Shown here piece after piece: positions 26,897 through 39,482 of a DNA stretch of 64,000 bases. The notes beneath the pieces were generated by a model. It was not told the origin of the DNA. It worked only from the letters and a program-made list of their open reading frames with translations, and did no database searches. Each line of letters starts with the position of its first letter. The stretch's first letter is position 1. The stretch covers positions 4,898 to 68,897 of the forward strand of contig JBCDFV010000023.1 in the NCBI GenBank assembly GCA_039177555.1. The letters are read 5' to 3'. A program made the translations under genes and the position numbers. Source of the DNA: Pseudomonadota bacterium (lineage in GTDB: Bacteria > Pseudomonadota > Alphaproteobacteria > DSM-16000 > Inquilinaceae).

Positions 26897-27886
26897 CTAG
26901 TCGCTGACCGACGCCGCGTCCCAGCGTCCGGTCGTGTCGAGGGCAAGGAAGTCGCCCAGTCGCTTTTGGATCGCCCTGTCCAGCATCGTCAGCTCGGCCG
27001 CGGGCAGGCTGATGTAGGGCCAGCGCACCGTCGCATCCAACGGCGCCCAGCGGCCGATGGCCGCCAGCGCCTTGTCGAAGGCGAAGGGCTGGAACGGGCC
27101 GCGCGCCAGCATCGGCTGGACCAGGTCGCGAAACAGTTCGGCGATGTCCCGCTCGATCGCCAACGCCCGCTCCGGCTCCGTCTGGATCAAGCGCCACCAG
27201 CCCACCGTGGCCGAGGGCGACAGGCAGGCCATGTTCGAATAGCTGCCATGGGCGCCGGCCAGGACGCCGGTGGCCATCCGGTGCCCGGGAATGAAGACGG
27301 ACAGTTGGTCGAACAAGGGCCGCGCTTGGTCATACCATTGAGCGTCGCCATCCATGATCTTGACGCCGATGACCGCGGGAACGGCCTTTGCCAGGCGGCC
27401 GATCTCAGTAGTGGTCAGCCGCCGTTTGGCATGAGGCGGGTTGTACAGCACCAGGGGGCAGGGGGCGGCCGCGATCGCGATGCCTTCCAGGAAGCGGACG
27501 GCCTCTTCATCGCTCGGCGGCACCCAGTCCGGCAGCACGACCTGCAAGGCCGTGGCGCCGGAGGTGGACAGACGCCGTGCGCGGTCGAGGCTGATTCGAG
27601 GGTTGGCGTCACAGACGCCGATCTGGAAGGGAAGGCCTCTTTTTCCCGCCGTTTCAGAGACTTGTAGCGCCACACGATCGTACTCGGCCTCGGTGATGGC
27701 GTGAAACTCCCCGGCCGTTCCGAATGCGTAGATGCCCTCCACCTCAAGACTGGCAAGCGTGTCCAACTGGGTCTGCAACGCGCCATGGTCGATCGTCCCG
27801 TCGGCGTTCAGGGGCAATAGAACGGTCGCCCAGACGCCGCGCGGCCAAGGGCGTCCGTCGGGTGTGTCTGGTGAGGCAGTCGGCAT
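26897..27886 (-). CDS. dihydrodipicolinate synthase/N-acetylneuraminate lyase (DHDPS/NAL) family protein
   Basis: 329 aa with LPLNADGTIDHGALQTQLDTL and the GTAGEFHAITEAEY motif of class I aldolases. Confidence 0.8.
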   Translation of the reverse strand: MPTASPDTPDGRPWPRGVWATVLLPLNADGTIDHGALQTQLDTLASLEVEGIYAFGTAGEFHAITEAEYDRVALQVSETAGKRGLPFQIGVCDANPRISLDRARRLSTSGATALQVVLPDWVPPSDEEAVRFLEGIAIAAAPCPLVLYNPPHAKRRLTTTEIGRLAKAVPAVIGVKIMDGDAQWYDQARPLFDQLSVFIPGHRMATGVLAGAHGSYSNMACLSPSATVGWWRLIQTEPERALAIERDIAELFRDLVQPMLARGPFQPFAFDKALAAIGRWAPLDATVRWPYISLPAAELTMLDRAIQKRLGDFLALDTTGRWDAASVSD

Positions 27887-27915
27887 GGCGCAATGGTATG
27901 TCCGATCGTTAATTT

Positions 27916-27967
27916 GGTAAAGCCATTTGACTCATCGGTAAGACCAAACTAGCCTTTGGTCATGACC
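27916..27967. promoter_or_regulatory. three phased GGT-N3/4-(A/G)CC boxes (candidate GntR/FadR-type operators)
   Basis: The boxes are GGTAAAGCC (27916), GGTAAGACC (27937) and the perfect palindrome GGTCATGACC (27958-27967, overlapping the GntR ATG). They are spaced exactly 21 bp apart in the 75-bp divergent intergenic region. Confidence 0.45.
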
Positions 27968-28702
27968 GAACCAGCCGCCGGACGTCGCAGACTGTCCACC
28001 GACATCGCGGATGCACTCGTTGAGCGCATTCGCAACGGCGACTTCCCCGAAGGATCGGCGCTGCCGTCGGAGCGCGATTTGTGTGAGCAGTTCGGCGTCG
28101 GCCGTCCCACCGTGCGCGAGGCGATGATCCATCTGGAAAGCCGGGGTTATGTCGATGCTTCGGCCGGCCGGCGGCCCCGGATTCAGGAACCGTCGCTGGA
28201 CCATCTGTTCGGCCGCCTGTCGTCGCTTGCCGGCCAGTTCCTGCGCACGCCGGAGGGCTTCGGCCATCTGGAACAGGCGCGCATGTTTCTGGAAACCGGC
28301 GTCGTCCGCTATGCCGTCGACCATGCTACGCCGGCCCAGATGTCGGCGCTGCATGCCGCGTTGAAGGCCTGCGATGCGCAGATCGAAACGGACGAACCGT
28401 TTCGCAAGGCCGATGTCGCCTTCCACCGGGTGCTGGCGGAGATGCCGGGCAATCCGATCATCGTCGCCCTGCAAGACGCGGTGGTGGAATGGCTGATCGA
28501 GCGCCGGCCGGCACGCCAGGACGTCGAGGCCCTGAACCGGATGAGCCAAGGGGAACATCAGGAAATCTTCGATGCCGTCGTCCGCCGCAACAAGCAGCAG
28601 GCGGAGGACGCGATGATCCGACACCTGAACCGGGCCTATTACATGTACTTTCTGCAAGGGGACGGCGCGCCCGGGCCGGCTGCCCCGCAAGGAACGGCGT
28701 GA
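27962..28702 (+). CDS. GntR-family (FadR/FCD subfamily) transcriptional regulator
   Basis: It has a winged HTH (LPSERDLCEQFGVGRPTVREAM) and a C-terminal all-helical FCD domain. ATG 27962 is preferred over TTG 27956. Confidence 0.85.
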   Translation: MTEPAAGRRRLSTDIADALVERIRNGDFPEGSALPSERDLCEQFGVGRPTVREAMIHLESRGYVDASAGRRPRIQEPSLDHLFGRLSSLAGQFLRTPEGFGHLEQARMFLETGVVRYAVDHATPAQMSALHAALKACDAQIETDEPFRKADVAFHRVLAEMPGNPIIVALQDAVVEWLIERRPARQDVEALNRMSQGEHQEIFDAVVRRNKQQAEDAMIRHLNRAYYMYFLQGDGAPGPAAPQGTA

Positions 28703-29604
28703 TGCTGCGCGGCATGTTTCCGGCCCTGCTAACGCCGTTCGATGCCGATGGCGGCATTATCGAGCCCGCGTTGGCCGCCCTGATCGACCACAACATCGAC
28801 CAGGGCATGCAGGGCTTCTACGCCGGTGGCTCGACGTCCGAGGCGCTGCTGATGGCCGAACCCATGCGCCACAGGATGCTGGACTTTGTCGCTGAGACGG
28901 TGGCCAGGCGGGTTCCGGTCATCGCCAATGTTGGCTGTATCTCGACGCAGGAAACCGTCTCGCTGGCGAGGCGGGCCGAGGCTGCCGGGTATGACGCCGT
29001 TTCCTTCGTGCCGCCCTACTATTACGGCTTCAGTCTGGACGAAATCCGGCGCCACACGCTTGCGGTGGGCGAGGCGGTCTCGATCCCGGTCGTGCTCTAC
29101 AACATCCCCAGCGCCAGCGGCGTGACGTTCGAACTGGACGCCATCCTGGAAATGCTGGAGTGGGACTTCGTGGCGGGCGTAAAGCACACCTCGCACGATC
29201 TGTTCATGCTGGAACGCATGAAGACAGCGTTTCCGGGCAAATCGGTCTTTGTCGGCCATGACGAGGTTCTGGCCGGCGGCCTGGCCTTGGGCGGCGATGG
29301 CGGCATCGGCAGCACCTATACCGTTCTAGGCCCCAGGATCCTGGCGGTACGCGATGCGATCGCGGCAGGCGATTTCGCCGGCGCCCTGGCCCATCAGCGC
29401 GCCATCAACGACGTCATCCAGACCTTGATCGGCTGCGGCGTTTTGCAAGGCCTGAAAACCTTGCTGCCCGATCTTGGGCTGGAGGGCGGCGTTTGCCGCG
29501 CGCCCTTCAAACCCCTGACCGAGGCGCAGGCAACTGAGCTGCGCGCGGTTTTCCATCGGCACTTTGGCTCGGCCCTGACGCCGGACCGGGCGGTAAGCGC
29601 CTGA
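28702..29604 (+). CDS. DHDPS/N-acetylneuraminate lyase family protein
   Basis: ATG 28702 overlaps the GntR stop. Motifs are MLRGMFPALLTPFDADGGI, GFYAGGSTSEALLM and the active-site Lys region AGVKHTS. The upstream 71 residues in the ORF track overlap the GntR gene. Confidence 0.85.
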   Translation: MLRGMFPALLTPFDADGGIIEPALAALIDHNIDQGMQGFYAGGSTSEALLMAEPMRHRMLDFVAETVARRVPVIANVGCISTQETVSLARRAEAAGYDAVSFVPPYYYGFSLDEIRRHTLAVGEAVSIPVVLYNIPSASGVTFELDAILEMLEWDFVAGVKHTSHDLFMLERMKTAFPGKSVFVGHDEVLAGGLALGGDGGIGSTYTVLGPRILAVRDAIAAGDFAGALAHQRAINDVIQTLIGCGVLQGLKTLLPDLGLEGGVCRAPFKPLTEAQATELRAVFHRHFGSALTPDRAVSA

Positions 29605-29637
29605 AGCAAGCAACACCAAACTGAACGGGAGAAGACA

Positions 29638-31287
29638 ATGTCACCACTGAACGGACGCGCCGGCGGGACCGCGCTTGGCAAGAGGCTGCTGGCCACGACG
29701 GCCGTGGCCCTGACGCTCGGCCTTGCGGTCCCTGCGCTGGCCGACGGCTCGCTTGTCACGGCGCTCGATATGGGGCCGGGCGGCGATGAGGATTCGCGGC
29801 CCTGGTCCAGCGGTGCCGGGCACACCACCCATGTGAAGCAGTTCATCACGCCGACGATCTTCAACGAAGACCTGTCCGCAATCGTGCCCTATGCCGTGGA
29901 GGCGTGGGAGTCCAACGACGACCACACGGTGTGGACCTACACGTTGCGCGACGGGCTATTGTGGTCCGACGGCACGCCGATGACGGCCAATGACTGGGCG
30001 TTCACCGCCGAGTTCATGACCGCGCCGGATTGGGCCGGCGACCGGCCGGGCGACCGCAACCTTTCCCTGTCGGAAGTGGCTGGTTTCGACGCCAAGACCG
30101 CCGGCGACGCTGACAGTCTGGAAGGCATCGAGGTCATCGACGACCAGACCATCCGGTTCACGCTTTCGGCGTCGAACCCGCGCCATTTCGCCAGCCTGTT
30201 CCGATTCTACATCTTGCCGGAACACGCGGTCGATTTCGAACCGGCGGACTATATGACCACGGACTGGTTCCGCGATCCGTCCCGCTTTGTCGGGTCCGGC
30301 CCGTTCGTCGTCGCCGACTACGCACCGGACGAGTACCTGACCCTGGGCGCCAATGAAAACTACTTCCAGGGCCGTCCGGCATTGGACGAGCTGGTGATCC
30401 GCTATTTCGGCGGTGATCAGACGGCCGCGCTGCTGGCGCTGGAGGCGGACGACATCGACTTCACCTATGTCACCGAGACGGACGCGCCGTCGCTGGAGGA
30501 TGCCTACGACATCTTCTCCAACCTGTCGGGCGTCGTGGTCATGACCCGGTTCAACTACAATCTGGTCGACGACGCGTTTTCCGACATTCGCGTGCGTCAG
30601 GCGATCCTTCACGCCATCGACCGGGACGCGATCACGGAGAACATTCTGGGCGGCACCTATGTGTCGATCCCGTGCCCGATCCCTTATGCCGACCTGTGGC
30701 CGGAAGACGTCACAACCTATGGCTACGATCCGGACCGGGCCGCGTCGCTGCTGCAAGAGGCTGGCGTCGATCCGGGCGCGATCTCCATGGAATGGGTCGG
30801 CCATGCCGGTTACGACAACACGGCGCATAACTCCGCGCTGCAGGCGGTCCAAGCCTACCTGTCGCAGATCGGGATCAACGATTTCAGCTATCGCTTTGTC
30901 GATATCCCGACCTTCCGCGCCAGCTATTCGCCTGATGGCGACTGGCAGAACCAGTATCACGGTTTCGGCGTGCCGCGCTTCGGCAACGATGTCGGCCGGC
31001 TGTGGAGCAATGGTGGCGCCTTGGGCACCGGTGTAACCGGCTATGACTACGACGCCGACGGGTTCGCCGACGCTATCGCCGCCATTTCCGCCGCGCCGAC
31101 GATCGACGATTACAATGCGGCCTTGGGCGATTTCTGTCGCCTGCATGCGGAGATGCTGCCCGATCTGCAGATGTGGGTCGGCAACCGCTTCGGCGCCGCC
31201 GATCCATCGATTGCGAACTTCTGGTGGCAGCCGGCCCCGGCGGGCGGTCCCTATCAGGACAACGCCCACACCTGGGCGGTGCAGTAA
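29638..31287 (+). CDS. ABC transporter substrate-binding protein, family 5 (peptide/opine/oligosaccharide type)
   Basis: 549 aa with a signal peptide ending LAVPALADG. It has SBP_bac_5-like length and motifs (WSDGTPMTANDW). Confidence 0.9.
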   Translation: MSPLNGRAGGTALGKRLLATTAVALTLGLAVPALADGSLVTALDMGPGGDEDSRPWSSGAGHTTHVKQFITPTIFNEDLSAIVPYAVEAWESNDDHTVWTYTLRDGLLWSDGTPMTANDWAFTAEFMTAPDWAGDRPGDRNLSLSEVAGFDAKTAGDADSLEGIEVIDDQTIRFTLSASNPRHFASLFRFYILPEHAVDFEPADYMTTDWFRDPSRFVGSGPFVVADYAPDEYLTLGANENYFQGRPALDELVIRYFGGDQTAALLALEADDIDFTYVTETDAPSLEDAYDIFSNLSGVVVMTRFNYNLVDDAFSDIRVRQAILHAIDRDAITENILGGTYVSIPCPIPYADLWPEDVTTYGYDPDRAASLLQEAGVDPGAISMEWVGHAGYDNTAHNSALQAVQAYLSQIGINDFSYRFVDIPTFRASYSPDGDWQNQYHGFGVPRFGNDVGRLWSNGGALGTGVTGYDYDADGFADAIAAISAAPTIDDYNAALGDFCRLHAEMLPDLQMWVGNRFGAADPSIANFWWQPAPAGGPYQDNAHTWAVQ

Positions 31288-31317
31288 CGGTAGCGTCACC
31301 GGGCATGGCTAAGGGGT

Positions 31318-31345
31318 GGGGCGGGTGCATCGCGGCGTCCGCCCC
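31318..31345 (+). other. intercistronic GC-rich hairpin after the SBP gene
   Basis: GGGGCGG (31318-31324) pairs with CCGCCCC (31339-31345) around a 14-nt loop, in the 92-nt gap between the SBP and permease genes. There is no U-tract. Confidence 0.4.
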
Positions 31346-31379
31346 ATCTCGCGCCACCTACCGGCAAGCGACCGATTAA

Positions 31380-32339
31380 GTGACCCGCTACATCATCAGG
31401 CGGCTGCTGCTGGCCATCCCGGTCCTGTTCATGGTGACCGTGCTGGTCTTCGCGCTGATCGAACTGGCGCCGGGCGATGTGGTCGACTTCTTCGCCAACC
31501 CGGAAGTCATGGCCGGCATGTCGGAGGCGGACCTTGAGGCCCTGCGCGAACGGCTGGGCCTCAACGATCCGGCCCCGGTCCGCTATCTGCACTGGCTCGG
31601 CGGCGTTCTGCAGGGGGATTTCGGCTACAGCCTGATCCGGTCCGAACCGGTGGGCGAGTTGCTGCTGCGGCGGTTCGGCAATTCCATGATGATCATGGGC
31701 ATCGGCCTGTTCGTCGCGGTCACCTTCGGCATCTCGCTGGGCATCTACACCGCGCTGCGCCAATACTCGGTTGCCGACTTCACCATCTCGTTTCTGTCCT
31801 TCGTCGGCATCTCCATGCCGGCCTTCATCGCCGGTATCATCGCGCTCTACGTCTTTTCGGTGCAGCTTGGCTGGTTTCCGGCCGGCGGCATGCGCTCGCC
31901 CGGGGTCCACACGCTGGGCGATCTTCTGCACCATCTGATACTGCCCGCACTGGTGCTCTCGATCATCCATATGGCGACCTTCATGCGCTACACGCGCTTT
32001 TCCATGCTGGATGTTCTGAAGCAGGAATATGTCGTCACCGCCACCGCCAAGGGCATGCCGCGCCGCATCGTCGTCATGCGCCACGCCTTCCGCAACGGCC
32101 TGATCCCGGTCGTGACCATGATCGGCTATTCGATCCCGGAACTGGTCGTCGGTGCGGTGTTCCTGGAAACCATCTTCTCGTTCCCCGGCATGGGCAAACT
32201 CTATTTCGACAGCGTCATCTCGCGCGACTTCCCCGTCATCATGGCCGCCAATCTGGTGATCGCCGTGTTCGTGCTGGCGGCCAACCTGATCACCGACGTC
32301 GCCTACGCGGCCATCGATCCGCGCATCCGGCTGGAATAG
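31380..32339 (+). CDS. ABC transporter permease (DppB/OppB type)
   Basis: 319 aa with a GTG start. The N-terminus YIIRRLLLAIPVLFMVTVLVF is typical of the family. The EAA-loop region is present. Confidence 0.9.
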   Translation: MTRYIIRRLLLAIPVLFMVTVLVFALIELAPGDVVDFFANPEVMAGMSEADLEALRERLGLNDPAPVRYLHWLGGVLQGDFGYSLIRSEPVGELLLRRFGNSMMIMGIGLFVAVTFGISLGIYTALRQYSVADFTISFLSFVGISMPAFIAGIIALYVFSVQLGWFPAGGMRSPGVHTLGDLLHHLILPALVLSIIHMATFMRYTRFSMLDVLKQEYVVTATAKGMPRRIVVMRHAFRNGLIPVVTMIGYSIPELVVGAVFLETIFSFPGMGKLYFDSVISRDFPVIMAANLVIAVFVLAANLITDVAYAAIDPRIRLE

Positions 32340-32343
32340 CGCG

Positions 32344-33222
32344 ATGGCCATGACCGAGGTCACGATCGACTCCCCGGCCCGGGTCGCCTGGCGCCGGTTT
32401 CGTCAGCACCGCATCGCCATGGTGGCGCTGGCCGTGTTGGGGGTGATCGTCATCCTGTGCGCGTTCGCGCCGTTCTTTTCTGGCTACGACCCGCTGGGCC
32501 TGAACATGGCCGCGATCCGCCAGCCGCCCAGCGCGGAACACTGGCTGGGCACCGATACGCTGGGTCGGGACGTCTGGACCCGGACGCTGTATGGCGGCCG
32601 CGTCTCGCTGGTGATCGGCCTGGCCGCGGCCTTTCTGTCGACGATCATCGGCATCGTGCTGGGCGTGATCTCCGGCTATTTCGGCAAATGGGCCGACATG
32701 GTGGTCATGCGGGCCACCGACGTGGTCATGGCCTTTCCGCCGATCATCATCATGCTGACCGTGGCGGCGTTCACCGGCCCCGGCCTCGTCAACGTCATCT
32801 TCATCATCGGTGGCCTACGCTGGCCGCCGACGGCCCGCCTGGTGCGCGGCCAGATCCTGCAACTGCGCGATCAGGACTTTGTCACGGCCGCCCGCACGCT
32901 GGGCCTGACCAATGCGATCATCATCACGCGCCATATGCTGCCGCACGTGGTCGCACCCCTGGTCGCGAACATCACCTTCGCGGTCAGCCTGGCGATCCTG
33001 ACCGAGGCGGGGCTGAGCTTCCTCGGCCTGGGCGTACCGCTGCCAACGCCGACCTGGGGCAACATGATGGAGGCCGCGCGCGACCTGCGCATCATGCGTG
33101 AGGAGCCGTGGATGTGGATCCCGCCGGCCATCTTCACGCTGATCACCGTGCTGTGCATCAACTTCGTCGGCGACGGATTGCGCGACGCCTTCGACCCGCA
33201 ACAGCTGATCGGCGAGAAGTAG
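32344..33222 (+). CDS. ABC transporter permease (DppC/OppC type)
   Basis: 292 aa with HWLGTDTLGRDVWTRTLYG, the hallmark of DppC-like permeases. Confidence 0.9.
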   Translation: MAMTEVTIDSPARVAWRRFRQHRIAMVALAVLGVIVILCAFAPFFSGYDPLGLNMAAIRQPPSAEHWLGTDTLGRDVWTRTLYGGRVSLVIGLAAAFLSTIIGIVLGVISGYFGKWADMVVMRATDVVMAFPPIIIMLTVAAFTGPGLVNVIFIIGGLRWPPTARLVRGQILQLRDQDFVTAARTLGLTNAIIITRHMLPHVVAPLVANITFAVSLAILTEAGLSFLGLGVPLPTPTWGNMMEAARDLRIMREEPWMWIPPAIFTLITVLCINFVGDGLRDAFDPQQLIGEK

Positions 33223-33223
33223 C

Positions 33224-34234
33224 GTGGCGGCCCAACCCCTGCTCTCGGTCGACGGCCTGACCACCTCCTTCGGTCGTGGGCCCGGCAAGGTGCGCGCCGT
33301 CGCGGATATGAGCTTCGACCTGGCCGAGGGCGAGGTGCTGGCCATCGTCGGCGAAAGCGGCTCGGGCAAGAGTGTCACCATGCGCTCGATCATGGGCATC
33401 ATCCCGATGCCGCCGGGTGTGATCGAAAGCGGCACGGCCTATTTCGACGGCGCCGACCTGCTGGCCATCGATCAGGAGAGCCTGAGGCGCCTGCGCGGCA
33501 AGGACATTGCCATGGTGTTCCAGGATGCCATGACCTCGCTGAACACGGTCCTGACCGTCGGCCGGCAGATCACCGAGGTGTTGGAAGAACATCTCGGCAT
33601 GACCGGCAGGGCGGCGCGCGACCGGGCGATCGCCCTCTTGGAAGAGGTCGGCATTCCCGACGCCGCCCACCGCATCGACGAATACCCGCACCAATTCTCC
33701 GGCGGCATGCGCCAGCGCGCCATGATCGCGCTCGCCATCGCCTGCGGCCCGCGCCTGCTGATCGCCGACGAACCGACCACAGCGCTGGATGTCACGATCC
33801 AGGCCCAGATCATCGACCTGGTGGTCGGCCTGCAGACGGCGCACGATATGGGCATCGTCTGGATCAGCCATGATCTGGGCGTCGTCGCGCGCATCGCCCA
33901 GAAGGTCATCGTCATGTATGCCGGCCGGGTGGTGGAGCGGGCCACGGTCGAGGATCTGTTCGACGCACCGGCGCACCCCTACACCATCGGCCTGCTCGCC
34001 TCCCTGCCGCGCCTGGATCAGGAACCGGGGGAACATCTGGACTCCATCCCCGGCCAGCCGCCGAACGCGTCGTCGCTGCCGCCGGGCTGCGCCTTCGCGC
34101 CGCGCTGTCCGCTGGCGACCGAGACCTGCCGGGTTGAGGTTCCGCCGGTGATCACGGTCGGCGACGGGCACAAAGCCGCCTGCCACCGGTTGGACGAGGT
34201 TCGCCAGCGCGAAGGTCGCCTGCCATGGACGTGA
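33224..34234 (+). CDS. ABC transporter ATP-binding protein (DppD type)
   Basis: It has Walker A GESGSGKS, signature FSGGMRQR, Walker [12 protein letters not shown] and a C-terminal oligopeptide-type extension with a Cys motif (CAFAPRCP). Confidence 0.9.
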
Positions 34235-35235
34235 CCGCTGCCGCTGCGCCGCCCCTCGTCGAGGTGCGCGACCTGAAGATGCATTTCCCGATCACACGGG
34301 GGATCGTCATCCAGCGGCGCATCGGCGCGGTCAAGGCGGTGGACGGCGTCAGCTTTTACCTGCGGCGCGGCGAAACCTTGGGCCTGGTCGGCGAAAGCGG
34401 CTCCGGCAAGACCACGATCGGGCGCACGATCCTGCGCCTGAACCAGCCGACCGCCGGCGAAATCCGCATCGACGGCAGGGATATCGCGACGGTCGGGCAG
34501 GGCGACATCAGGCGCCTGCGCCCGCGCATGCAGATGATCTTCCAGGACCCCTATGCCAGCCTGAACCCGCGCCTCACGGTCGGCACCATCATCGCCGAGG
34601 CGGCAGTCCATCACGGCATCCTGAAAAAGCGGGACCGGCAGGCCAGGGTCGGCGAGTTGCTGGAGACGGTCGGCCTCGACCCGGCCTTCGCCCAGCGCTA
34701 TCCACACGAATTTTCCGGCGGCCAGCGCCAGCGCATCGGTATCGCCCGCGCGCTGGCGCTCAGCCCCGACTTCATCGTCTGCGACGAGCCGATTGCCGCG
34801 CTCGACGTTTCGATCCAGGCCCAGGTGATCAACCTCCTGAAGGACCTTCAAGGCCGGCTGGGCCTGACCTATCTGTTCATCGCCCACGACCTCAGCGTCG
34901 TGCGGCACATCAGCGACCGGATCGCGGTCATGTATCTCGGCAAGATCGTCGAGATGGCGGACAGCCGGACGCTCTACCACGCGCCCAAGCATCCCTATTC
35001 CCAGGCCCTGTTGTCGGCCGTGCCGATCCCGGACCCGAAGGTGGAGAAACAGCGCCACCGCATCATGCTGACCGGCGACCTGCCCAGCCCCGCCAATCCG
35101 CCCAAGGGCTGCAATTTCTGCACCCGCTGCCCGATCGCCGAGGAAATCTGCCGCCGTGAGGAACCGCCGCTGATCGATCACGGCGACGGCCACCAGGTCG
35201 CCTGCCATTTCGCCAAGCCGGACGCGTCCGCCTGA
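34225..35235 (+). CDS. ABC transporter ATP-binding protein (DppF type)
   Basis: It has Walker [10 protein letters not shown], signature FSGGQRQR, Walker [11 protein letters not shown] and C-terminal CNFCTRCP. Confidence 0.9.
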
Positions 35236-35239
35236 GCCT

Positions 35240-36709
35240 ATGACCAGGCGCCCCAACATCCTGCTATGCATTTCCGACCAGCAGCGGACCGATACGCTTG
35301 GGTTCCTGGGCCGGACCCCGTGCCGGACGCCGCACATCGACCGGCTGGCGCGCGAGGGCACCTGTTTCGTCGACGCGATCTGCCCCAGCCCGATCTGCCT
35401 GCCGTCGCGCGCCTCCCTGATGACCGGGCAGTACCCGCATCAGGTCAATATGATGAGCAACAAGGACACCATCGAAGCGCCACCGCGCCTGACCGATGCG
35501 CTGCGCGGCGCCGGCTACCACACGGCTTATGCCGGCAAATGGCATCTGGAACCGGACGGCCACCCGGCCGCGTTCAAGGGCAGGGAGGCCGAGCTTGGCC
35601 TGCTCGACGTGCACGGCCCCGCCGACGCGGTGCTGGAACGGCGGCGCATCGACGACTGGTTCGATCGCGCCGAAGGCCAGGCCTCCGCCGACTATTCGGC
35701 CTGGTGCGCCGCCCAGGGCTTGCCCGACGGCTGGCCGGTATCCGACGACGATCTGCGCACCAGACGCACGCCGTCGATGTCGATGCCAACGCCCAAGCGG
35801 CAGGCGGACCTGACGGCCGATCAGACCTATGATGGCTGGGTCACCAGCCTGGCCCTACAGTTTCTCGACGAACGCCCGGCCGACCAGCCGTTCTTCCTGG
35901 TCTGCGGCTGGTTCGCACCCCATCCGCCCTTCAAGGTGCCGGACCCGTTCTTCGACATGTATGGCGCCGACTTGGCGCCGGAGCCGCACAATTTCGGCCT
36001 GCAGGGCGGCGAACCGGCCGGTGTCGAGCGCAGCTTCTATCATGCGCTGTTCGAGGATTATGGCGACCGCTGGCCGCCCTGGGCCAGGTCAATGGCCGCC
36101 TATTGGGGCTACACCTCGATGGTCGATGCCCAGTTCGGCCGGCTGCTGGCACGGCTGCAGGCGGAAGACGTGCTCGACGACACGCTGGTCATCTTCTGTT
36201 CCGACCATGGCGAGATGATGGGCAGCCACGGGCTGTGGCACAAAATGGCGCCTTACGAGGAATGCCTGCGCGTGCCGCTGATCCTGCGCCTGCCGGGCAG
36301 CATTGGCGCCGGGCGGCAGGTGACTGGCCCCGCCTCGCTGATCGACGTGCCGGCGACGATTCTGGCCGCCTGTGGCCTGCCGATCCCGGACGTCTATGAG
36401 GGTGCCGATCTCCTGTCCGGCGACCGGCCACGCTACCGCTTCTCCGAGATGCGAAGTCTGGGCGACTGGCATGGTATTGCCGATTTTCGGCTGGTTGTCG
36501 ATGACCGGTTCAAGCGGGTCTGGAACCAGGGCGAGCGTGGCGAGTTCTACGACCTCGCATCCGACCCGTACGAACAGACCAACCGCATCGACGATCCTGC
36601 CATGGCGCCGGATATCGATCGCCTCACCACCGCGTTGATCGATTGGATGCGCAAGACGAGCGACCCGCTGCTCGCCGCTGCCGAAACGGAACTGCTGACT
36701 AGGAAATGA
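35240..36709 (+). CDS. Cys-type sulfatase (arylsulfatase family), no signal peptide
   Basis: 489 aa with NILLCISDQQRTD and the formylglycine motif C-L-P-S-R-ASLMTGQYPH, plus FCSDHGEMMG. The N-terminus has no secretion signal. The start is 4 nt after the ATPase stop. Confidence 0.9.
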   Translation: MTRRPNILLCISDQQRTDTLGFLGRTPCRTPHIDRLAREGTCFVDAICPSPICLPSRASLMTGQYPHQVNMMSNKDTIEAPPRLTDALRGAGYHTAYAGKWHLEPDGHPAAFKGREAELGLLDVHGPADAVLERRRIDDWFDRAEGQASADYSAWCAAQGLPDGWPVSDDDLRTRRTPSMSMPTPKRQADLTADQTYDGWVTSLALQFLDERPADQPFFLVCGWFAPHPPFKVPDPFFDMYGADLAPEPHNFGLQGGEPAGVERSFYHALFEDYGDRWPPWARSMAAYWGYTSMVDAQFGRLLARLQAEDVLDDTLVIFCSDHGEMMGSHGLWHKMAPYEECLRVPLILRLPGSIGAGRQVTGPASLIDVPATILAACGLPIPDVYEGADLLSGDRPRYRFSEMRSLGDWHGIADFRLVVDDRFKRVWNQGERGEFYDLASDPYEQTNRIDDPAMAPDIDRLTTALIDWMRKTSDPLLAAAETELLTRK

Positions 36710-36713
36710 CGGT

Positions 36714-37487
36714 ATGACGACCTTCGACCCTGGGAACGAAACCGAAATCCTGGCGGCGTATGATCGCGATGGCTATGTCGCGTTCGAGCGCTTCCTGGAC
36801 CGGGAGACGATCGACGCGGCCCTGGCCAAGATCGCCGATATCCGCGAGGGGCGCATTGCCGGCATTCCGGACGACCGCATCTACTTCGAAGACCCCGCCG
36901 ACCGCTCGACCCTGAAACAGGTGCAAGAGCTGTTCAAATGGGACCCGTTGTTCGAACGGCTGATGTTCGAGGGCAGGGCCCGGCGTCTGGCGGAAATCCT
37001 GCTGCAGGACGAGGCGGTCGGCCGCAACATGCAGTATTTCAACAAGCCGCCCCGGGTCGGCCAGCCGACGCCGCCGCATCAGGACGGTTATTACTTCATG
37101 CTGAAACCGTGCGTCGCGGTCACCATGTGGCTGGCGCTGGAACCGGTCGACGAAGAAACCGGCTGCGTCCGCTATCTGGAGGGTTCTCACAAGGCCGGTA
37201 TCCAGCCGCATGAGCGCACCCAGACGATCGGCTTCAGCCAGCAGGTCAGCGACTTCGACGGCCTTCGGAGTTCCTATCCAGAGCGCGCCTTTCCGGCCGC
37301 GCCAGGCACCTTGCTGGCCCACGACGCGCGGACGGTCCATTTCGCCACCGGCAATCAATCGCCAACCCGTTCGCGCCAGGCGCTGGGCTTCATCTACTAC
37401 GCCAAGCGGGCGCGCGAAGACCAGGCGGCCCATGCCGCCTATCAGGCCAAGCTGGCGGAGGATTTGCGCGAGCGCGGCGCGCTTTAG
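36714..37487 (+). CDS. PhyH-family Fe(II)/2-oxoglutarate-dependent dioxygenase
   Basis: 257 aa with YDRDGYVAFERFL. The facial triad candidates are H-Q-D in PPHQDGYYF and His in ARTVHFATGN. The Arg is in RSRQALGF. Confidence 0.85.
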   Translation: MTTFDPGNETEILAAYDRDGYVAFERFLDRETIDAALAKIADIREGRIAGIPDDRIYFEDPADRSTLKQVQELFKWDPLFERLMFEGRARRLAEILLQDEAVGRNMQYFNKPPRVGQPTPPHQDGYYFMLKPCVAVTMWLALEPVDEETGCVRYLEGSHKAGIQPHERTQTIGFSQQVSDFDGLRSSYPERAFPAAPGTLLAHDARTVHFATGNQSPTRSRQALGFIYYAKRAREDQAAHAAYQAKLAEDLRERGAL

Positions 37488-38365
37488 CCCTTCAGCCCGG
37501 CCAGTTCGCGCATCATGGCGTAAATCGCGGTCCAGTCCTCGCCGCCGCGCCCTTGTCCGCGCGCCAGCGTGTATTGCTCCCGCGCCGCCGCGCCGAGGGG
37601 CGCCGGCACATTGGCGCTTCCGGCGACCTCCAAGGCCAGGCCGATGTCCTTGTGCGCCAGATCCAGCATGAAGGCAGGCGTCAGGTCGCCCTTCAGCACC
37701 TTGGCGGGATAGGTCGTGTTCATGTGGCCCTGGCCGGCGGCGGTGCCGGCCATCACCCGCCGTGCCAAAGCGACGTCCAGGCCGCTCTTCTCGGCCAAGG
37801 TAAGGGCCTCGGCCGTCAGCACGTTGTTGGCGATCGACATGAAGTTGTTGACGATCTTCATGCGGATGCCCGTGCCGGGGCCGCCACAATCGACCGTTTC
37901 ATCGCCCATGCAGTCGAACGCCGGCTGCGCGCGCGCGATGTCGGACGCCGTGCCGCCGGCAAGGACCAGCAGCTTGCCCTCGATCGCGTGCAGCGAGGTG
38001 CGTCCCACCGGCGCGTCGACCATGCCGATGCCCCGTTCCGCCAGCGCCGAACGAATGGCATCGCTCTCCAGCGGATGGATCGTCGACATATCGACGACCA
38101 ACGCCGATGGCGGCAATGCATCCCGCGCACTGTCGGGGCCGAGAAGGGCTGTCCTGACATGCTCCGCGTTCGGCAGCATGGTGATAACCAGATCGGCAGC
38201 GCCAACAGCCTCCGCCGCCGAACCGGCGCCGATACCGCCATGGTCCACGTGTTTGGCCACGGCGTCGTCCTGAACGTCGAAGCCGGCCACTTCGTGGCCG
38301 CCCTGGACCAGATTGTGGGCCATCGGCAGGCCCATCGTGCCCAATCCGATAAAGGCGATGCGCAT
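37484..38365 (-). CDS. NAD(P)-dependent beta-hydroxyacid dehydrogenase (3-hydroxyisobutyrate/tartronate-semialdehyde reductase family)
   Basis: 293 aa with MRIAFIGLGTMGLPMAHNL and the catalytic Lys region (IRMKIVNNF). Confidence 0.9.
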   Translation of the reverse strand: MRIAFIGLGTMGLPMAHNLVQGGHEVAGFDVQDDAVAKHVDHGGIGAGSAAEAVGAADLVITMLPNAEHVRTALLGPDSARDALPPSALVVDMSTIHPLESDAIRSALAERGIGMVDAPVGRTSLHAIEGKLLVLAGGTASDIARAQPAFDCMGDETVDCGGPGTGIRMKIVNNFMSIANNVLTAEALTLAEKSGLDVALARRVMAGTAAGQGHMNTTYPAKVLKGDLTPAFMLDLAHKDIGLALEVAGSANVPAPLGAAAREQYTLARGQGRGGEDWTAIYAMMRELAGLKG

Positions 38366-38372
38366 GGCCGGC

Positions 38373-39482
38373 CTACGGTGCCTGTTCCAGCTTCAGGTAA
38401 AAGTCGCGATAGATGGCGTCGCGGTTGATGTCGTAAGCCTCGCGCATCGCATGGCGCCCCTCGGGGTGCTGCCAGGTCAGATCGTCGGCCAGGACGGGCG
38501 CCGGCAAGATGTCGGTCGGCACCCAGGCGGGATTGATCAGCCAGGCGATGTTGATGATGTCCCAGACGATCCAAGTGCGCCATTCGATGCCGGTGATGCC
38601 GCGCTGATCGTGGATCGGGTTGTTGGTATAGAGATGATAGAGATAGTCGCCGATCGCGCCCTTGCCGCGCACCCATTTCTCCATCTCCGGCAGCGAGATG
38701 GTGAGCTGCGCCCCGATGTGGAACCCGGGCAGGTAGACATGGGCCACGCCGCTCTCAAACAGCAATTGTGATGCCAATTTGTCCTGCACCAGGTTCAGCG
38801 ACGGCACGTTGTTGCGATGGCTGCGGCTCGGGTAGCCCGAGGTCCACAAAACGACCATGTTGTCGATGATCTCCGGCGCCATCAGCAGCGCCGAGGCGAT
38901 GTTGGTGACGCAGCCGATCGCCGAGACATAAAGCGGCCGGTCCGAAGGCGCCAAGGCCTGCTCGATGATGAACTCTGCCGCCGGCGTGCGGATCGGCTGG
39001 TCCAGTGAGGTGAGATAGCCGGGCGAGCCGTGGAAGACCTTGCCGCCGGGGTCCATGTTCAGCTTGTCGTAGACCCGCAGGATTTCGTCATAGCTGCGCT
39101 GTTCGCCTTCGTCGGGCGGCACGAACTCGACTTCGGCCGGGTGTCTTTCTTGGTCTATCAAGCCTTCGACCCAGCCGCGATAGGTGCCGACGATCGCGTG
39201 TTCCTCGGCCGTTTTGGCGCCGCCTTCCTTCATGATCTCGTGCGCCTGCAAGAGGCCCGGCCGCAGATGCTGGAACGAGTAGGGCTCTGCCGTGACGCCT
39301 TCCACCTCGATCTGGTCCGGCGACAACAGCGCCCAGGCGAGCGCGAACTGGTCGTCGATCTCGTTGGCGGTATCCGTGTCCAGCACCATGCGCACGGGGC
39401 CCGTGGGCGGCGCCAGCAGGCGGCGCATATGGTCATCGGGAAGCGGTTTGAACCGGTCGATGATCTCGCGGGGAATGGCCAT
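38373..39482 (-). CDS. nucleoside hydrolase-family protein (atypically long)
   Basis: 369 aa with the Ca-binding Asp cluster MVLDTDTANEIDDQFAL. It has an N-terminal extension of about 30 aa before the DxDxxxDD motif. Confidence 0.75.
   Translation of the reverse strand: MAIPREIIDRFKPLPDDHMRRLLAPPTGPVRMVLDTDTANEIDDQFALAWALLSPDQIEVEGVTAEPYSFQHLRPGLLQAHEIMKEGGAKTAEEHAIVGTYRGWVEGLIDQERHPAEVEFVPPDEGEQRSYDEILRVYDKLNMDPGGKVFHGSPGYLTSLDQPIRTPAAEFIIEQALAPSDRPLYVSAIGCVTNIASALLMAPEIIDNMVVLWTSGYPSRSHRNNVPSLNLVQDKLASQLLFESGVAHVYLPGFHIGAQLTISLPEMEKWVRGKGAIGDYLYHLYTNNPIHDQRGITGIEWRTWIVWDIINIAWLINPAWVPTDILPAPVLADDLTWQHPEGRHAMREAYDINRDAIYRDFYLKLEQAP

Follow-up and report, generated by a model that had tools for sequence, protein, structure and literature searches.

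A nan-type sialic-acid operon with a candidate sialate O-sulfatase in an alphaproteobacterium of the family Inquilinaceae

Organization of the locus

The window analysed here is a stretch of 64,000 nucleotides (nt) from contig JBCDFV010000023.1 of assembly GCA_039177555.1, which derives from an alphaproteobacterium in the family Inquilinaceae. Between positions 26897 and 37487 it contains a ten-gene locus in which genes for sialic-acid (nan-type) metabolism stand together with an importer, a sulfatase that is a candidate sialate O-sulfatase and a dioxygenase. On the plus strand the series opens with the gene for a NanR-like GntR/FCD regulator (27962-28702, alternative TTG start at 27956; Pfam GntR and FCD), followed by the gene for the N-acetylneuraminate lyase NanA (28702-29604, alternative GTG start at 28699; NCBIfam PRK04147). 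The next five genes encode an ATP-binding cassette (ABC) importer: a family-5 (PepT/Opp-type) substrate-binding protein with a signal peptide (29638-31287; Pfam SBP_bac_5, 236 bits), permeases of the OppB/DppB type (31380-32339; Pfam BPD_transp_1 and BPD_transp_1_N) and the OppC/DppC type (32344-33222; Pfam OppC_N and BPD_transp_1), and ATPases of the OppD/DppD type (33224-34234) and the OppF/DppF type (34225-35235), both with Pfam ABC_tran and oligo_HPY. The series ends with a Cys-type formylglycine (S1) sulfatase (35240-36709; Pfam Sulfatase and SGSH_C) and a PhyH-family Fe(II)/2-oxoglutarate dioxygenase (36714-37487; Pfam PhyH, 104 bits). A second member of the dihydrodipicolinate synthase (DHDPS) superfamily, of 329 aa and termed DHDPSx here, is encoded divergently on the minus strand (26897-27886; Pfam DHDPS, 79 bits), and the region in between (27887-27967) reads as a divergent promoter with candidate operator boxes.

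All ten genes had been placed at these coordinates, DHDPSx on the divergent strand included, by an earlier model-made reading of the bare DNA (the sequence-only reading), and all were recovered by open reading frame (ORF) listing and Pfam/NCBIfam scans. From the lyase to the PhyH gene the spacings are 33, 92, 4 and 1 nt, an overlap of 10 nt, and twice 4 nt; the start of the sulfatase gene at 35240 does lie 4 nt past the end of the ATPase gene at 35235, as had been stated. The ATGA overlap claimed for the regulator and lyase genes was a misreading: the regulator stop codon TGA (28700-28702) overlaps either the GTG at 28699 (as GTGA) or the ATG at 28702 (as TGATG). A simple terminator scan of the gene block returned 4 internal terminator-like sites against 6.6 expected by chance, hence no excess. 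The recurrence of this gene set in diverged genomes puts the association well beyond chance. Beyond the PhyH gene, a convergent pair consisting of a beta-hydroxyacid dehydrogenase gene and a long nucleoside-hydrolase-like gene (37484-39482) is kept only in 94-95% identical metagenome-assembled genomes (MAGs; loci L019 and L020), and probably lies outside the operon's system.

The sialic-acid core

The first lyase exceeds the cut-off of the NCBIfam equivalog PRK04147 (293 bits against 281) and, with E values of 1e-64 to 1e-66, is similar to NanA structures of the E. coli type; it is about 45% identical to E. coli NanA, as estimated by eye from an alignment. All the catalytic and sugar-binding residues of E. 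coli NanA are retained, among them Y137, K165 (which forms the Schiff base), T167, D191, E192 and S208. It is the sole NanA of the genome, the remaining genomic matches reaching merely DapA level, and on these grounds it is assigned as a true N-acetylneuraminate lyase. The regulator is best matched by far by NanR (NCBIfam NF003011, 245 bits, E 8e-73, a little short of the curated cut-off of 260), its second-best NCBIfam family being LldR at 75 bits. Within the 27887-27967 promoter region, boxes of the type TGGT-N3-4-ACCA can be read (TGGTAAAGCCA, CGGTAAGACCAA and TGGTCATGACC), and a comparison by eye found comparable boxes 5' of the matching regulator genes in six related loci (L019, L020, L022, L013, L014 and L021). 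They are put forward as candidate operators in the style of FadR/GntR regulators; the sites of E. coli NanR are GGTATA repeats, from which the boxes found here look different.

The remaining genes of the pathway were sought elsewhere in the source assembly (4.77 Mb). A NanE gene (Pfam, 156 bits) and genes for two ROK-family kinases are found on contig C13, where they flank an SBP_bac_1 ABC importer, and the ROK-family kinase there is likely to be NanK; contig C12 carries NagA, with a score above its cut-off. A search of the genome for a BNR_2 sialidase found none, so that the organism would scavenge free sialic acid. Taken together, the NanR-like regulator, the true NanA, and the NanE and ROK-family kinase elsewhere in the genome therefore lead us to assign the core of the locus as a nan-type operon for sialic-acid uptake and breakdown. 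The second sialic-acid-related locus, at C13:85233-90780 (L099:9234-14780), comprises NanE, the SBP_bac_1 importer and a ROK kinase, preceded by the further ROK kinase. In layout it is similar to the second module of other Inquilinaceae loci, its importer may take N-acetylmannosamine (ManNAc) or plain N-acetylneuraminic acid (Neu5Ac), and no operator motif was seen 5' of this NanE locus.

Canonical nan clusters, in E. coli and others, follow the plan NanR-NanA-transporter-NanE-NanK with the accessories NanM, NanS and NanOx. The present system shares with them the NanR-like FCD regulator, a NanA with a full active site, a dedicated importer of high-affinity type, and NanE, ROK kinase and NagA in the genome, as well as the logic by which an accessory enzyme strips a modification ahead of NanA, as NanS does for O-acetyl groups. 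It differs in that NanE and the kinase are unlinked (on C13), that the importer is not close to any of the eight described families of sialic-acid transporters, and that the locus has three additions: a formylglycine sulfatase of the cytoplasm, the PhyH dioxygenase and DHDPSx as another, divergent enzyme of the DHDPS family. We know of no described nan system with any of the three. The sequence-only reading had held that the combination of genes was not a described pathway. This fails for the core, which is of a known nan type, and stands for the sulfatase and PhyH; like the second lyase-like enzyme and the type of importer, these have not been described as components of a nan system.

The sulfatase

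The formylglycine motif of the sulfatase reads C53-L-P-S-R57, and C53, P55 and R57 are invariant in an alignment with 28 relatives. The same alignment shows the blocks SDQQ at 12, GKWH at 99, SDHGE at 321 and WHK at 333 to be invariant together with H228; D13, Q14, K100, H102, H228, D322, H323 and K335 are the residues to which, by analogy with arylsulfatase A-type active sites, we presumptively assign metal-binding and catalytic roles. The start codon lies 4 residues before the conserved PNILL...SDQQ block, which begins at residue 5 in the alignment, and this leaves no room for a leader, in agreement with the earlier claim of a CLPSR motif in a protein that has no signal peptide. In most relatives at nan-linked loci the start codon lies 2-6 residues ahead of the conserved N-terminal block, and companion sulfatases at related loci likewise start close to it where their N-termini are readable. 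Leaders of twin-arginine (Tat) or lipoprotein-like type are present in two Phycisphaeraceae relatives, which adjoin BNR_2 genes. For want of a leader, the sulfatase of the window is taken to be cytoplasmic.

A formylglycine-generating enzyme (FGE) would be needed for maturation. As had been noted, none is encoded in the window, and the genome, which has about ten sulfatase genes, contains two full FGE genes (on contigs C17 and C2) and a third FGE-domain gene (C31). At the related loci L014, L017 and L121 a gene for FGE or an anaerobic sulfatase-maturating enzyme (anSME) is adjacent.

The best PDB match of the sulfatase has an E value of 3.5e-49, in two stretches, and is informative at family level only; the nearest solved structures are an exo-2S-iota-carrageenan sulfatase (6pt4), a sulfatase of N-acetylglucosamine-6-sulfate (GlcNAc-6-sulfate; 5g2v) and a choline sulfatase (6fny). 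These S1 enzymes share with it the CxPxR motif, the metal and catalytic residues and the two-subdomain layout of Sulfatase and SGSH_C. Most characterised glycan sulfatases are exported; the present one differs in having no leader, and in lying among nan genes rather than in a polysaccharide utilisation locus. Phosphonate monoester hydrolases, promiscuous enzymes of the same superfamily that likewise use formylglycine, are also among the PDB matches (2vqr and 2w8s, E about 1e-34), which raises the question of whether a protein of sulfatase fold could hydrolyse a phosphate or phosphonate ester in vivo, such as Neu5Ac-9-phosphate. All the better PDB matches are sulfatases, however, the companion genes at related loci encode further sulfatases, FGE and anSME, and we know of no phosphorylated sialic acid that serves as an environmental nutrient, so that this activity is regarded as highly improbable. 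The role proposed for the sulfatase would be that of the NanS-type sialate O-acetylesterases, namely the clearing of an O-substituent from the glycerol side chain for the NanA/NanK/NanE route; fold and chemistry are unrelated, an acetyl ester being cleaved by NanS and a sulfate ester here, and only the sulfatase depends on maturation by FGE.

Conservation of the sulfatase alongside nan genes

Sulfatase homologues at 51-66% identity occupy the same kind of locus. The identical ten-gene operon, from the regulator to PhyH, is found at L013 (66% identity), and loci in Inquilinaceae MAGs (L014, L021 and L022) contain NanA, the regulator, the family-5 ABC importer and the sulfatase, together with a second importer, NanE, PhyH, ROK and FGE. 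At L015, a Chloroflexi locus on a Phototrophicaceae chromosome, the importer genes lead into two sulfatase genes, a NanE-ROK fusion gene and genes for a lyase and a sialidase. An Aggregatilinea contig has the importer, a DHDPS-like gene, the sulfatase and an adjoining anSME.

A wider scan of one genome per species yielded 80 loci, the gene content of which was established by tblastn against a reference set. Linkage was counted over the 66 non-redundant loci with a sulfatase relative of at least 38% identity: a nan partner (NanA, a DHDPS-type lyase, NanE, ROK/NanK or NanM) was present within 10 kb in 38 of these, and a further 3 had only a BNR_2 sialidase-like gene within that distance. In a maximum-likelihood tree the sulfatase of the window falls in a seven-member clade with 100/100 support, every member of which is nan-linked and which is sister to Chloroflexi sequences; in a separate alphaproteobacterial clade of 26 members, 23 are nan-linked. 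The label of nan linkage is clustered on the tree, none of 500 label shuffles (0/500) being as low. In Thalassobius sp. MITS945101 a Pfam check places the sulfatase between NanM (437 bits) and an alpha/beta-hydrolase esterase, inside a cluster of NanA, NanE and ROK. There (L080:11202-12899) the sulfatase is followed by this esterase, which belongs to Abhydrolase_3 and is a possible analogue of the sialate O-acetylesterases, and by a gene of the GFA (glutathione-dependent formaldehyde-activating) family.

The importer found with the sulfatase family is of one of two types, either the family-5 ABC type or a tripartite ATP-independent periplasmic (TRAP) transporter of SiaP-like type. The latter is seen in about ten loci besides that of Tropicimonas sp. 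IMCC6043. In these, a sulfatase followed by DctM-DctQ-DctP is divergent from NanA-GntR-DHDPS-like-sulfatase, and the TRAP binding protein matches SiaP structures with E about 1e-38. Binding proteins of the DctP type recognise carboxylates. The pairing of TRAP systems with the same sulfatases thus indicates that the sulfated compound is itself probably an acid sugar and not a neutral sulfated hexose.

In a Victivallales MAG, a single ORF of 1056 aa (L033:304-3474) fuses a sulfatase domain (226-672) to a BNR_2 sialidase domain (730-1036), and the same locus holds a 48% relative of the window sulfatase; the fusion reads as a Rosetta-stone-type link of desulfation with desialylation. Several other families recur in the Chloroflexi loci L015, L016, L017, L032 and L119: a large protein of the FAA-hydrolase (FAH) type, FAD oxidoreductases of family PF12831, proteins with the URO-D fold and the pair DUF6772/DUF6385. 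The permeases of the window are 54-66% identical to the Chloroflexi versions versus about 40% to those of Roseobacter/Rhizobiales, and the sulfatase and binding protein (29638-36709) are also nearer to the Chloroflexi (L015-L017) than to L054-L085, a pattern of similarity that suggests transfer of the importer-sulfatase block between phyla.

The importer

In a sample centred on the binding protein, all three relatives (51-62% identity) lie beside a GntR/FCD gene and signal-less sulfatases, and two of the three also have either a NanE-ROK fusion and a lyase, or a sialidase and an anSME. SatABCD, the ST3 transporter of H. ducreyi and Actinobacteria (PMC8461474; structure 5z99), is comparable in that an SBP_bac_5 protein and an Opp/Dpp-type ABC core occur in a nan cluster. 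The importer was considered as a member of this family and rejected on two grounds. The first is the weak similarity to SatA: the H. ducreyi protein (5z99, 5yyb) is matched at E 4.6e-9, last among the 60 PDB matches listed, in which about 55 peptide, nickel and opine binders outrank it. The second is the subunit layout, since SatC is a permease-ATPase fusion (PMC8461474, Table 1) and the window encodes two separate permeases and two separate ATPases. A further difference from SatABCD is that the importer described here was found beside sulfatases in every relative sampled (3/3).

The DHDPS-like enzyme and the PhyH dioxygenase

The DHDPS-like protein meets no NCBIfam cut-off, scoring 45 bits against nanA models with cut-offs of 281 and 382, and its best PDB matches are weak (E about 1e-12), with no close solved or curated relative. 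All its relatives retain, in register, the Lys that forms the Schiff base and the catalytic Tyr, and the sugar-binding residues of NanA are replaced, GYDE (D191/E192) by P-GH(R/H/T) and IGST by YSNM. A sample of 401 genomes from the class contained it in 4 cases, and at Chloroflexi and Rhizobiales/Roseobacter loci the gene of a relative immediately precedes that of the sulfatase. It is classed as an uncharacterised clade that forms a conserved but rare partner of nan clusters. An Arg at the position of NanA Asp191/Glu192 was considered as a ligand of sulfate and the idea was dropped, as the position varies between R, H, T, N, F and L; conservation is limited to the His next to it and to one at position 142.

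These features bear on the possibility that the locus serves a different sulfated 3-deoxy-2-ulosonic acid, neither Neu5Ac nor N-glycolylneuraminic acid (Neu5Gc) but Kdn, Kdo or a nonulosonic acid of bacteria or algae. The DHDPS-like enzyme would then be its dedicated lyase, with NanA serving ordinary sialic acid. The direct coupling of the DHDPS-like gene to the sulfatase in two phyla, its replacement of NanA in some Chloroflexi loci and its sugar-binding residues unlike those of NanA would all fit, as would the top PDB match for the binding protein of the TRAP system, which is 4pf6 and not SiaP, and the many carrier MAGs that appear environmental rather than host-associated. The commonest partners of the sulfatase are nonetheless the canonical NanA, NanM, NanE and ROK-family kinase, whose specificity is for N-acylneuraminate and N-acylmannosamine, and sulfated Kdo or sulfated bacterial nonulosonic acids are, to our knowledge, not documented; such a substrate is judged decidedly unlikely.

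The PhyH protein has the iron triad H122-Q-D124 and H209, with basic residues 10-12 positions further on, and its PDB matches are EvdO2, PHYHD1 and SnoK. The gene was found in 2 of the 401 genomes of the class sample. Relatives at 59-68% identity follow the sulfatase at L013 and L022, have NanE on one side and ROK on the other at L014, and are transcribed divergently from NanE-ROK at L110, this last being a 63% relative with no sulfatase nearby; homologues at 54-55% identity are found in other sugar contexts. Among sulfatase-linked loci PhyH is confined to the window's own clade. PhyH was therefore rejected as a fixed partner of the sulfatase, being limited to the closest clade and also found with NanE/ROK or the DHDPS-like gene where the sulfatase is absent. 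A 1.6-Mb alphaproteobacterial genome carries a cluster (L103, G209:C1:535800-549700) of a major facilitator superfamily (MFS) transporter, a BNR_2 protein, two PanB-like proteins, two PhyH proteins, a class IV aminotransferase, a DHDPS-like relative (40% identity), an M81 peptidase and a class III aminotransferase, which continues with ROK, NanE, another DHDPS lyase and ABC genes; this cluster could be a route for an amino-substituted nonulosonic acid. The DHDPS-like and PhyH genes are thus both members of a wider sialic-acid setting, in which they are conserved but rare partners, and the two enzymes probably handle another modified form of the sugar.

A proposed route for O-sulfated sialic acid

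In the reading that we prefer, to which we give a probability of roughly 55%, the operon with its NanR-type regulation is specialised for O-sulfated sialic acids: such an acid would enter the cell intact, lose its sulfate in the cytoplasm and then be split by NanA. What the analysis shows is which genes are present, their operon-like packing, the cytoplasmic location of the sulfatase, and a conserved linkage of both the sulfatase clade and the binding-protein clade to nan genes; the identity of the sulfated substrate and the order of the steps are inferred. Uptake through the family-5 ABC importer would concern a sulfated sialic acid in free form, such as Neu5Ac or Neu5Gc with a sulfate at O8 or O9, which, because the genome has no sialidase, must be released by the sialidases of other organisms. 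The signal-less sulfatase, matured by an FGE of the genome, would then strip the sulfate in the cytoplasm, NanA would split the product into pyruvate and an N-acylmannosamine, and the ROK-family kinase and NanE of C13 and the NagA of C12 would complete the route. Desulfation is expected to precede NanA, since NanA keeps D191/E192, which hold the glycerol tail, and should therefore bind that tail in unmodified form; a 9-O-sulfate left in place would give ManNAc-6-sulfate, and the kinase could then not phosphorylate O6. Equally compatible with synteny is an order in which the DHDPS-like enzyme would cleave the sulfated acid and the sulfatase would then act on a sulfated mannosamine.

The sequence-only reading had already proposed import of an intact sulfated substrate and cytoplasmic desulfation. 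This central inference stands: the missing signal peptide is a conserved feature, the sulfatase gene is closely coupled to those of the importer, and FGE genes are available outside the window. Of the three kinds of substrate that it named, the sulfated sugar acid is retained and narrowed to an O-sulfated sialic or nonulosonic acid, and the sulfated peptide and sulfated amino acid are not supported. Readings in terms of a peptide, an opine, carrageenan, ulvan or a glycosaminoglycan were rejected, none of them accounting for NanA, NanM, NanE and the ROK-family kinase together.

Several observations weigh against an O-sulfated sialic acid as the substrate. No nan gene lies within 10 kb at 25 of the 66 loci, some of which are on short contigs; several source MAGs seem, by sample names only, to be terrestrial, a setting in which the occurrence of sulfated sialic acids is undocumented; carrageenan, choline or GlcNAc-6-sulfate are the substrates of the nearest solved sulfatases, which match at family level only; and the binding protein is distant from SatA, the one characterised sialic-acid binding protein of family 5, an importer family that more often carries oligomers. 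Chloroflexi loci have up to five cytoplasmic sulfatases per importer, a number that a monosaccharide with one sulfate group would hardly call for and that hints at oligosaccharides or at substrates with several sulfates. An alternative is a nan operon in which the sulfatase acts on some other sulfated sugar that occurs along with sialic acid in glycans of hosts or algae (GlcNAc-6-sulfate, N-acetylgalactosamine-4/6-sulfate, galactose-3/6-sulfate or a small sulfated oligosaccharide) and enters by this importer or by a different one. In its favour, GlcNAc-6-sulfatases and mucin-desulfating sulfatases are among the solved relatives, transport of oligomers is frequent in family-5 importers, and Chloroflexi loci with four or five sulfatases, FAD oxidoreductases, URO-D and DUF6772 look like those for complex sulfated glycans. 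The window operon, however, has one importer and no glycoside hydrolase, its sulfatase is translationally packed with nan genes under a NanR-like regulator, the binding-protein clade co-occurs with sulfatases and nan genes alike, and elsewhere the sulfatase is paired with a SiaP-like TRAP system, a type generally associated with carboxylates. A separate sulfated sugar is judged unlikely, and an O-sulfated sialic acid is kept as the preferred substrate.

Significance

O-sulfated sialic acids occur in the gametes of echinoderms (sea urchins) and, as has lately been shown, throughout the vertebrates including mammals (PMC13634767). The sulfotransferases that make them were, as cited in PMC10017367 and PMC13634767, identified only in 2022. 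According to a 2023 review, no microbial sulfatase that acts on sulfated sialic acid had been reported (PMC10017367), and literature searches beyond that review found no microbial sialate sulfatase; a 2021 survey of sialic-acid transporters mentions neither sulfatases nor Alphaproteobacteria. The family described here, found in sialic-acid clusters across several phyla, is the best available candidate for a bacterial enzyme that desulfates sulfated sialic acids. It is a tentative and, on balance, doubtful extension of this that the clade would be the first family of sialate O-sulfatases, forming with the new family-5 ABC importers and the SiaP-related TRAP importers a new bacterial route for O-sulfated sialic acids, in which the DHDPS-like lyase and PhyH would be further 'unblocking' enzymes (for example by oxidative removal of O-methyl groups) within a general salvage of modified sialic acids in marine and environmental bacteria.

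The family has cultured carriers in Thalassobius sp. MITS945101, Tropicimonas sp. IMCC6043 and Jannaschia aquimarina GSW-M26, and these members of the Roseobacter group make the hypothesis directly testable; authentic standards of sulfated sialic acid have been described (PMC13634767). The candidate sulfatases could serve as reagents for detecting and editing sialic-acid sulfation, and the importer would extend the known set of sialic-acid transporter families. Together, the sulfatase, the importer and the regulator would explain how bacteria use a capped form of a major host sugar.

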